47,442 nt of DNA from a virus (taxonomy: Duplodnaviria > Heunggongvirae > Uroviricota > Caudoviricetes), in the IMG/VR virus record IMGVR_UViG_2913112809_000004, positions 1 to 47,442 of that record; one strand, written 5' to 3'. Every line of letters begins with the position of its first letter. Position 1 is the stretch's first letter. Shown here piece after piece: positions 30,001-31,738 of the stretch. Made by a program: the position numbers.

Positions 30001-31738
30001 TAAAAAACAACATCCCATCGAAGGAATCCGCAAATGCCTTTTGTGTGACATAGTCTGATATGAAAAGCGAAGAATTAATGTACGGGAATAAGGATTACCA
30101 GAAATTCAGATTAACTTTCCTGTTTAAACGAGAAAAATTAATTTATATACTTTTTGCACTTCCTGAACGGGGGGGAACGGAAATTCGTTATGTTTCACGG
30201 ACTTTGTCCAGCGACCTTAATCCGACGGTCGCGTTTTTTTTTCGTCATATTCATCGTTGACTTACATGGCATTGCCACACGGACATTATCAGTGTCCGTG
30301 TATTTTTTTGAATTCAACACAAAAAAAACCGCCTGGTGCGGCGGCTGAACAATGCTGAAGATGAATCATTTTTATTGTAGTGAAATTGAGATGTTGTGGA
30401 CTTCCCTGAATATCTGACTTTATGCCTGATATTGTGGTTCCAAAAACAACAATGTAAACCACCCTCAATACCGGGGAACATCTCTTTGGTGTTATTTACA
30501 ACACCGGAATGATGCATTTCCGACTCTCCAAAGAAACACAATATTTCTACCGAAAATACACCATTCCGCTATTGTAAAATAACAGCGCAAACCACTGACT
30601 AGCCAATTACAAATCGGTGTTCCTGTTTCCTGAGCAATGTTTACTCTTCATATGAGTTCTTGTCGGGGAATAAAACCACTCACCCGGAAGACAGACGTAT
30701 AATAACAAGGAATAAAATCACTTCAACTGTAATAATCTGAAAAATGATTCTTGCCACATGAAAACACCCACCAACCGTCCATTACCACAAATAAAAAAGC
30801 CTTCACCGCGTCGCGGTTTTCCATTTTCTTTACTTCTACAATAGCCTTACGGGTTTTCTTTTTGAAAATCCCAAACATCGTGAATTTTCCTTTTAGTGGG
30901 TGAGCCTCCGCCCGGGGTGACCAGTCCACAGAGAAAGTCACACTGATCATCCCGTAAGCTTACCCCTGAAAGGTTCTGTGGTTTTTGATCCGCGCCGGGC
31001 GTAGCGCAAAGAAATGAAATAAGCCTTATCTGAAATTAAGGTTAATCTGAGGATTTAAACCATTCTAAATGCTTAGTAGTATAAACATGCCTATTGAAAG
31101 AGGCAGATACTAATCCTTCTTCGCGGACCTTGTCCCGCGGCTTTAATCCGACAGCCGCGTTTTTTTTGCTTGTATATTTCCAAATGATGCAAATATAAAA
31201 GGCTCACCGAAGCGAACCTGATTCAAGCGTACTTGCTGCTACAGCAGGGCTATAATACCCCAACCACATAACGCCATGTGTTCTTTTCTAATGAGTTGGT
31301 GATGGTTTTATGCAAGCAAAAAAAACCGCCTGTTAAGGCGGTGGTCAAATCAGTAAGTGCTGAAGAGTATTATTATAATATAGGTGAGGTGTCGGGTGCC
31401 TCCCGAAATATCTGACATTCCATCAGATACTGTAGTTTCCCCGCTAAACAACCACTAAAACCACCCCCGCACATGGGGTTCACCTCATTTTGTGATGTTA
31501 ACAACATCGGGATAGTGCATAATCAGCCCCTGCCAGGAAATATCAAAAATCCCACTAATAATGCACTATCCCGATAGTGTCAAAAAACACAGCACTGAAA
31601 CTATAACTGGTCTCCGTTATAATTCGGGGGAGCGTTAAAGGAGTATACGAGACCTTTCCCCGCGAGAAAAAACGCCAGTGCTGAAAAACCTGTGCCTCAT
31701 TTGTTTTGCTGGAGCGGGTAGCGGGAATCGAACCCGCG

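Follow-up and report, generated by a model that had tools for sequence, protein, structure and literature searches.

The window analysed here is a 47,442-nt stretch of viral DNA (Caudoviricetes; IMG/VR record IMGVR_UViG_2913112809_000004, positions 1 to 47,442). On its minus strand, the late transcription direction, two diverged RNA units, here termed modules A and B, lie between a tRNA-Thr/tRNA-Gly pair and the holin gene (feature coordinates are collected in Table 1). The two copies share one layout, namely, a 5' hairpin of ~30 bp, a multi-helix core closed by helix P1, an A/U-rich tail and a CCGCC-N6-GGCGG-U8 terminator, and are 62% identical across 268 aligned columns (65% by BLAST). They are sense-oriented between a Q-like late antiterminator gene and the lysis cassette and end in intrinsic terminators, which is the arrangement of an STnc100 locus (Rfam RF02076), and their structure and homology place them in the STnc100/PasD family of prophage small RNAs (sRNAs). 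The family is known; what is new is a structural variant with a 5' hairpin, a nested P3 helix and linkage to tRNA genes, not a new class of RNA.

A first-pass annotation, made from the sequence alone, had described paralogous structured RNAs at this place, and the elements that it listed are all present where it had placed them: the arms of the 5' hairpin (AUCGGGAUAGUGCAU / AUGCACUAUCCCGAU in module B; CGGAAUGGUG / CAUCAUUCCG, with one G.U pair, in module A), a long-range helix (UGAGGUG/CACCUCA in B, 31487-81 / 31391-85; GAGAUGUU/AACAUCUC in A, 30484-77 / 30395-88), and the internal hairpins and terminators of both copies. The helices proved longer than first described, the 5' stem reaching ~30 bp, and two of the three blocks that had been taken for conserved and unpaired are mostly paired (GGGUGGUUU in P2/P3, and GUCAGAUAUU..GGGARG in P4/P5), leaving UCUUCAGCA in the single-stranded tail. 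Compared with shuffled sequences, minimum free energy (MFE) z-scores were -6.8 for the whole of unit B and -4.8 for the whole of unit A; the 5' hairpin alone folds at -40.2 kcal/mol in B (z -6.7) and at -42.4 kcal/mol in A (z -8.4).

Relatives were gathered from complete Escherichia coli genomes and IMG/VR contigs, and 14 alleles of less than 97% pairwise identity were aligned (alignment A3) and folded together with RNAalifold. The consensus runs from the ~30-bp 5' hairpin through a linker to P1, which closes P2-P5, and on to a single-stranded tail of ~45 nt and the terminator, with 96.3% of cells paired. Both-sided changes occur at 19 of the 64 pairs, compared to 8.5 +/- 1.9 in shuffles (0 of 500 shuffles reached 19) and to 2-5 pairs in a control with slid partners; P1, P2 and P4 each show such changes, helices that also covary in 54 canonical STnc100 cores. 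P1 encloses P2, P4 and P5 in both window copies, as it does in STnc100.

Selection on these structures is specific to one strand. The paired cells of 29 unique 5' hairpins comprise 702 Watson-Crick, 167 G.U and 12 A.C combinations, the A3 alignment holds 74 G.U and 0 A.C cells, and the hairpin alignment folds at -33.0 kcal/mol in the sense direction and only -9.1 kcal/mol in antisense. Because of this G.U/A.C asymmetry and these fold energies, the 5' stem is selected as RNA of the late direction, and not as a DNA palindrome. It is scarcely credible that the units encode small proteins, or that an operator, a recombination site or a miniature transposable element, as a feature of the DNA itself, accounts for the inverted repeats. 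The long inverted repeat of copy B does flank promoter-like hexamers, and copy A does contain a 75-aa open reading frame (ORF); but the hexamers are not conserved among alleles, the strand asymmetries are not expected of a DNA palindrome, and from allele to allele the ORFs vary in strand, frame and length, that of copy A having no Pfam match. A promoter or operator palindrome considered in the hairpin loop of copy B (TTGATA-16-GATTAT) was rejected on the same two grounds, hexamers unconserved in other alleles and an asymmetry that marks RNA. The earlier claim of a functional, structured minus-strand RNA with no conserved reading frame therefore stands, borne out by compensatory changes and the lack of coding potential.

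At Rfam gathering thresholds, no match was found in the module region. When E-values were used instead, copy B matched the STnc100 model at 34.5 bits (E 2e-5; gathering score 47) over its full length (1-206), with the terminator mis-aligned, and copy A gave no match at E<=1. This threshold misses accepted relatives, since PasD1 and PasD2 themselves score 37.7 and 41.4 bits, below it. These two sRNAs of enteropathogenic E. coli (EPEC) were found by Hfq RIL-seq (in which interacting RNAs are ligated and sequenced), validated by Northern blot, and are 172-173 nt long (PMC8550237). IMG/VR was scanned with the P5 motif, yielding at least 58 clusters below 88% identity; the 54 canonical cores mentioned above make up alignment A4, and a covariance model, R1, was built from canonical cores only. 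Rfam calls STnc100 (61-147 bits) at eight of the 11 R1 training loci checked (nine training cores). R1 detects copy B, alone of the two modules, at 47.0 bits (E 2e-11; 31490-31381), nine other alleles of the hairpin-bearing sub-family at 21-45 bits, and PasD1 and PasD2 at 27 bits (E 1e-5). The P5 hairpin with its flank, CACCGGGAGGCACCCGGCACC, is 100% conserved in the 54 canonical clusters; copy B, with UUUCGGGAGGCACCCGACACC, retains stem, loop and 3' flank, and it shares the motifs GGUGAA-CCCC..GCG..GGGG and CGGGAGGCACCCGaCACC with the most invariant columns of the family. Copy B appears to keep all of the family hallmarks. The first-pass view that the modules belong to no named family is contradicted by the two STnc100 matches of copy B; the Infernal search that had been proposed as the check on novelty gave a sub-threshold match for B and none for A, and so weakens that claim. 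A loose pattern, GTCAGATATTNNGGGARG, also tried on the genome and viral contigs, returned almost only chance matches and was dropped.

Copy A is the more divergent module. Its P5 has lost the motif (UUCAGGGAAGUCCACAACAUC), with GGGAAGUCCAC where the family-invariant GGGAGGCACCC is expected, and its P4 contains one A.A mismatch. Copy A is nonetheless homologous to the family despite being missed by the models, because it is similar over its full length (77% identity over 287 nt) to an intermediate allele, L002, that R1 detects. It is either neo-functionalised or decaying, a degenerate or a diverging paralogue.

The likeness to STnc100 (EcOnc27 in enterohaemorrhagic E. coli (EHEC) Sakai, sRNA103 in EDL933) extends to the sense position between late antiterminator and lysis genes, the P1-closed multi-hairpin core with P2 (CCCC..GCG..GGGG) and a P4 hairpin, the variable tail, the intrinsic terminator and, in copy B, a P5 of CGGG-AGGCA-CCCG flanked by CACC; a prophage often carries several STnc100 copies, and they frequently lie downstream of phage tRNAs. 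EcOnc27/sRNA103 is an STnc100 downstream of stx2B and is Hfq-bound, as found by Hfq crosslinking and analysis of cDNA (CRAC) and Northern blot (PMC12711010; PMC7873438). The window copies differ from STnc100 in their extra 5' hairpin of ~85 nt, in lacking a TTGAC-17/18-TAnnnT promoter of their own, in scoring below the gathering threshold, in the missing P5 motif of copy A, and in P3. In canonical members, the ACCAG strand that follows P2 is complementary to the P4 loop, with both-sided changes at five of six positions (A4 columns 36-41 with 107-113; L173-L292), although the MAFFT alignment has just 65% of these cells paired; to judge from these patterns, canonical members probably form a pseudoknot between ACCAG and the P4 loop, which is absent from the Rfam consensus. 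In the hairpin-bearing sub-family, the place of this pseudoknot-type strand is taken by GUGGUU, which pairs with AACCAC in a shared, nested P3 helix.

With PasD1 and PasD2 (EPEC E2348/69; homologues of EcOnc13), the modules share the structural family, the sub-threshold score on STnc100, detection by R1 (for copy B) and the locus between Q and holin, and their core-to-terminator length of ~170 nt is like the 172-173 nt of PasD. According to a 2026 preprint, which collected the PasD family by BLAST-level similarity, PasD is homologous in structure to STnc100, and both lie between Q and holin (bioRxiv 10.64898/2026.05.13.724894). PasD loci were absent among the BLAST matches of copies A and B, though no direct BLAST with PasD was run, and MAFFT aligns the core motifs only. 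PasD1 and PasD2 begin at P1, behind promoter-like sequence and with no 5' hairpin, unlike the window modules, which have the hairpin and lack the PasD seed.

Table 1. Features of the module region and of other loci named in the text. Positions are those of the window.
Feature	Position	Strand	Basis or remarks
sok antitoxin RNA	34455-34632	-	Rfam, 97 bits
Q-like DUF1133 gene	32185-32856	-	
tRNA-Thr(UGU) + tRNA-Gly(UCC)	31710..31863	-	ARAGORN, Rfam; directly upstream of module B
Module B, whole unit	31317..31583	-	
Module B 5' hairpin	31498..31583	-	stem of ~30 bp including perfect 15-bp arms; short apical stem
Module B STnc100-like core	31386..31486	-	Rfam, model R1
Module B P1		-	GAGGUG/CACCUC
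Module B P2	31478-31465	-	CCCC..GGGG
Module B P3	31464-31432	-	nested, GUGGUUU/AAACUAC
Module B P4	31431-31407	-	
Module B P5	31404-31394	-	CGGG-AGGCA-CCCG
Module B A/U-rich tail	31342..31385	-	unpaired in MFE and consensus folds; holds UCUUCAGCA
Module B intrinsic terminator	31317..31341	-	CCGCC-UUAACA-GGCGG, then U8
Candidate convergent sRNA, ~80 nt	31088..31168	+	ends in repeat D1b, hairpin GCGGCU..AGCCGC plus U8
Promoter-like element ahead of D1b unit	31054-31082	+	TTTAAA-17-TAGTAT
Repeat D1b	31120-31167	+	hairpin-U8 terminator
ORF between modules	30723-30950	-	75 aa, no Pfam match
Module A, whole unit	30320..30578	-	
Module A 5' hairpin	30495..30578	-	fold energy, covariation
Module A core	30388..30484	-	P1 = GAGAUG(UU)/(AA)CAUCUC; P2, P3 and P4 kept
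Module A single-stranded tail	30345..30387	-	holds UCUUCAGCA
Module A intrinsic terminator	30320..30344	-	CCGCC-GCACCA-GGCGG, then U8
Terminator-like hairpin	30277-30308	+	ACACGGACA..UGUCCGUGU plus U-run
Candidate convergent sRNA	30158..30242	+	ends in repeat D1a, 85% identical to D1b
Promoter-like element ahead of D1a unit	30123-30151	+	TTTAAA-17-TATACT
Repeat D1a	30194-30241	+	hairpin-U8 terminator
Holin gene	29571-29990	-	
LT-II genes	27411-28629		downstream of modules, same direction
Hairpin in dicF position	42333-42375	+	terminator hairpin GGCGGGUAUC..GAUACCCGCC, then CUUUUU
Third STnc100-like member, canonical type	42383..42513	+	no terminator; R1 73.7 bits, E 4e-19

The 5' hairpin is found neither in PasD nor in canonical STnc100 members, and it is linked to tRNA genes: in 21 of the 24 related loci examined, it lies 90-125 nt downstream of tRNA-Thr(UGU)/tRNA-Gly(UCC), as it does for copy B (the three loci without the upstream tRNA pair include L349, which is cut off upstream). 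Canonical members mostly have a TTGAC-17/18-TAnnnT promoter of their own, with 5 nt between its end and P1 (a match at nine or more of 12 positions occurs in 28% of canonical members vs. 1.4% in shuffles). In the sub-family, the sole TTGACA-like hexamer is contained in the stem of the hairpin, and the best that copy B offers is TGnTAACAT, with nothing promoter-like in copy A. Judged by sequence, then, the sub-family is without a convincing promoter of its own, and because the TTGACA-like hexamer sits in the stem and the loop hexamers are unconserved, its RNA would be transcribed from upstream, with tRNA-Thr and tRNA-Gly the probable co-transcription partners of module B. The first-pass suggestion of a processed late-transcript RNA fits this combination of a transcribed 5' hairpin, tRNA linkage and want of a convincing promoter. 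Some relatives keep the outer parts alone: in L340 (1953-2110), and also in L370 and L353, the tRNA-linked hairpin and terminator are retained and the core is replaced by ~55 nt of unrelated sequence, and in L217 (8145-7900) the core is degenerate and there is no upstream tRNA. In relatives, ARAGORN additionally reports odd 'tRNAs' of 82 nt (Val-aac, Tyr-ata) in the stretch from module B to the TerB gene (L001 3586-3667, L363 1425-1506, L027 795-876, L050 3299-3380), which may be pseudo-tRNAs or tRNA-like structures; it reports none at the equivalent site of the window.

RNase III processing hairpins occur in phage polycistronic RNAs (the T7 early region, the lambda N leader), and 3'ETS-leuZ is an sRNA derived from a tRNA operon. 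The 5' stem of the modules resembles these in being a long, near-perfect, RNA-selected stem that, in a phage operon, separates a tRNA cluster from the functional RNA that follows; it has no sequence relation to them.

A match to copy B was found in 844 of the 5,426 complete E. coli genomes, with roughly 230 alleles of full length. B-type alleles (94-96% identical) stand alone in many genomes of porcine enterotoxigenic E. coli (ETEC), followed by a TerB-family gene, and the single L002-type allele is flanked as B is on the tRNA side and as A is on the holin side. The two-copy arrangement was in none of the complete E. coli genomes searched; it is found, at ~95% identity, in the IMG/VR contigs L027, L050 and L037/L298. 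Copies A and B are divergent alleles, each with closer relatives elsewhere, and not the recent duplication of spacer that the first-pass annotation had named as the outcome that would tell against it. The first ~50 codons of the ORF between the modules match the start of the genes annotated as TerB-family in relatives, and the remainder was apparently replaced as module A became attached. Because both copies have separate closer relatives and only these ~50 codons remain between them, the pair seems to have arisen when recombination between prophages brought two alleles together. Multi-copy arrays are normal for the family, since several IMG/VR prophage contigs carry 2-3 tandem STnc100 copies (L192 342-1038; L182, L240, L190), the three of L192 all being above the Rfam threshold.

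Such joining raises the question of whether one or both modules, chiefly copy A, might be functionless remnants in decay, combined by recombination between prophages, which we consider rather unlikely. Copy A lacks the invariant P5 motif, carries the P4 mismatch and is missed by both models; degenerate and core-less alleles exist; the window is mosaic-looking, its TerB-annotated remnant having no Pfam match; and the pair is missing from complete E. coli genomes. Yet the 5' hairpin, P1-P4 and terminator of copy A are almost perfectly paired, copy A is ~95% conserved in three independent contigs, and the compensatory changes and G.U/A.C asymmetry across the sub-family indicate ongoing purifying selection on the RNA.

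On balance we favor, with some reserve, the reading that the modules are noncoding RNA genes of the STnc100/PasD family, transcribed from upstream, processed or protected by their hairpin, and acting in trans as Hfq-type sRNAs; for the processing enzyme, Hfq binding, trans action and targets, we infer the following. The RNA would be the 3' part of a transcript begun upstream, either at the tRNA-Thr/tRNA-Gly cluster or at the Q-dependent late promoter. The 5' hairpin would serve either as a site of double-strand-specific (RNase III-type) processing, by which the sRNA is separated from the tRNA precursor, or as a protective 5' cap structure; from the analogy with phage polycistronic RNAs we hold the RNase III-type role to be the more likely, although a protective 5' stem-loop is equally compatible with the comparison. 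In lysogens, transcription would end at the terminator of the module, yielding an sRNA of ~170-270 nt that would bind Hfq through its U8 and A/U-rich tail and use the tail for base pairing with mRNAs in trans. In PasD, the seed and the RIL-seq chimeras lie a short way upstream of the terminator (PMC8550237), and by analogy the tail of module B is a putative seed and Hfq-binding region. The riboregulator role offered by the first-pass annotation would be in line with the Hfq RIL-seq and CRAC results for relatives (PMC8550237, PMC7873438). Its more specific suggestions, control of lysis timing or a sponge function, are conceivable.

Several observations weigh against this reading. The tails ACCUAUAUUAUAAUAAUACUCUUCAGCACUUACUGAUUUGACCA (B) and AAUUUCACUACAAUAAAAAUGAUUCAUCUUCAGCAUUGUUCAG (A) lack UGUGAG, the PasD seed (PMC8550237), and of all segments the tail differs most between A and B, at 39% identity; pairing of the shared tail block UCUUCAGCA, as a seed, with a phage target was rejected, since no other place in the window carries its complement. 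In a published RNA-seq table, the abundance of PasD is little changed in an hfq mutant (PMC8550237). Neither copy reaches the STnc100 gathering threshold of 47 bits, and R1, even with its filters off, returns only noise on copy A. The core may not be the selected part in the sub-family, where hairpin and terminator outlast it. The same core also serves as a terminator-less mRNA leader upstream of dicB (see below), hinting at a role in cis, and the two serial terminators would insulate holin, endolysin and LT-II from tRNA-promoter transcription, a cis role that could accompany the sRNA role or replace it. A 6-codon mini-ORF (AUG AUU xAU ... UGA) seen in some tails was also considered and set aside, being absent from copy B, L208 and L347.

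These last observations on the core, dicB and the terminators would also suit a rival reading in which the modules act in cis and are not trans-acting sRNAs, the terminators shielding the lysis and LT-II genes from constitutive transcription out of the tRNA promoter so that only Q-modified polymerase passes, with hairpin and core as processing or stability elements of the polycistronic RNA. We regard this as possible but unlikely. The two terminators between tRNAs and holin are strong, the core-less alleles retain hairpin and terminator, the dicB leader has its core without a terminator in both the window and K-12, and the LT-II genes lie downstream in the same direction; but a terminator alone would suffice for insulation, leaving unexplained a conserved, covarying, multi-helix core of ~100 nt, and in relatives the RNA accumulates as a discrete sRNA that is bound by Hfq and has many partners (PMC8550237, PMC7873438). 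Insulation in cis and sRNA action in trans are not exclusive.

The dicB leader is a third family member in the window, of canonical type, and scores 37.1 bits on the Rfam STnc100 model, below threshold. It forms the untranslated leader directly upstream of dicB (DicB Pfam match 1e-27), following a hairpin in the DicF position. The element recurs in the Qin prophage of K-12, where dicF and dicB flank it (locus L374 1654-1784, NC_000913.3 about 1649453-1649583), with an R1 score of 70 bits and an alignment that is 91% identical; no description of a structured domain in the dicF-dicB spacer was found in the dicBF literature checked. The hairpin in the DicF position, which the Rfam DicF model does not call, resembles K-12 DicF in its flanks alone and may be a diverged allele of DicF.

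Modules A and B themselves are neither DicF nor put RNA, as the first-pass annotation had held. The Rfam DicF model (RF00039) has no match anywhere in the window and finds dicF of K-12 at 76.7 bits; R1 gives no match in HK022, the phage with putL and putR, and the modules lie in the late region behind tRNAs. What they share with HK022 put RNA and DicF is to be phage-encoded structured RNAs within or from operon transcripts, and the third family member adjoins the DicF position; the architecture differs. A put-like antiterminator was rejected on the absence of an R1 match in HK022, and this counts more broadly against the idea, which we rate as very improbable, that the core acts on RNA polymerase or on the transcript (as an antiterminator, a self-processing or a ligand-binding domain) and that sRNA activity is secondary. 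Invariant loops, a multi-helix junction and the probable pseudoknot of canonical members would suit such a domain, as would its sense direction in operon leaders (the late operon and upstream of dicB) and its occurrence in often 2-3 copies per prophage; however, many canonical members have their own promoter and terminator, like ordinary sRNA genes, and the window copies have no pseudoknot strand.

Downstream of each module lies a D1 repeat, a plus-strand hairpin-U8 terminator that ends a unit headed by a promoter-like element (Table 1). Hfq-sRNA dyads are known between pR' and the lysis genes, namely, EcOnc27/AsxR and EcOnc06/AgvB (Tree et al. 2014, as reviewed in PMC7873438). As in these dyads, each module is followed by a convergent unit, so that by analogy the D1 units are candidate convergent sRNAs of ~80 nt in the position of the antisense partner; they match AsxR and AgvB in position and layout only. 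The D1 units belong to no Rfam family, and neither AsxR (RF02703) nor AgvB (RF02702) was matched at E<=10 on either strand of 29900-32100. The 3' half of the D1a unit is conserved in 104 E. coli genomes. Homology of D1 to PasA was dropped for lack of any similarity, and pairing of the module tails with D1 RNA did not exceed that of shuffled sequences. Between the module A terminator and D1a, another terminator-like hairpin on the plus strand is conserved, along with D1, in the 104 E. coli genomes. Elsewhere, upstream of the late antiterminator region, the sok antitoxin RNA marks a hok/sok-type toxin-antitoxin locus.

The STnc100-like family is widespread yet missed by annotation, because even its validated members fall below the Rfam threshold. 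The hairpin-bearing sub-family suggests a biogenesis route for prophage sRNAs, in which co-transcription with tRNAs is followed by processing. Since the modules directly precede, in an enterotoxigenic-type prophage, the lysis cassette and the LT-II toxin genes, their terminators or any riboregulation could affect toxin release. More speculatively, and with doubts of our own, the STnc100-type core could be a modular, possibly pseudoknotted domain that is placed sense-wise in operons and acts in cis on processing, stability or elongation. If so, the hairpin sub-family would be a tRNA-operon cassette whose RNase III-type hairpin releases the downstream RNA, and a more general RNA-processing module of phages would have the sRNA activity as one of its outputs. 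Because K-12 carries this core between its dicF and dicB genes, the conserved domain can be studied there in a tractable model strain.

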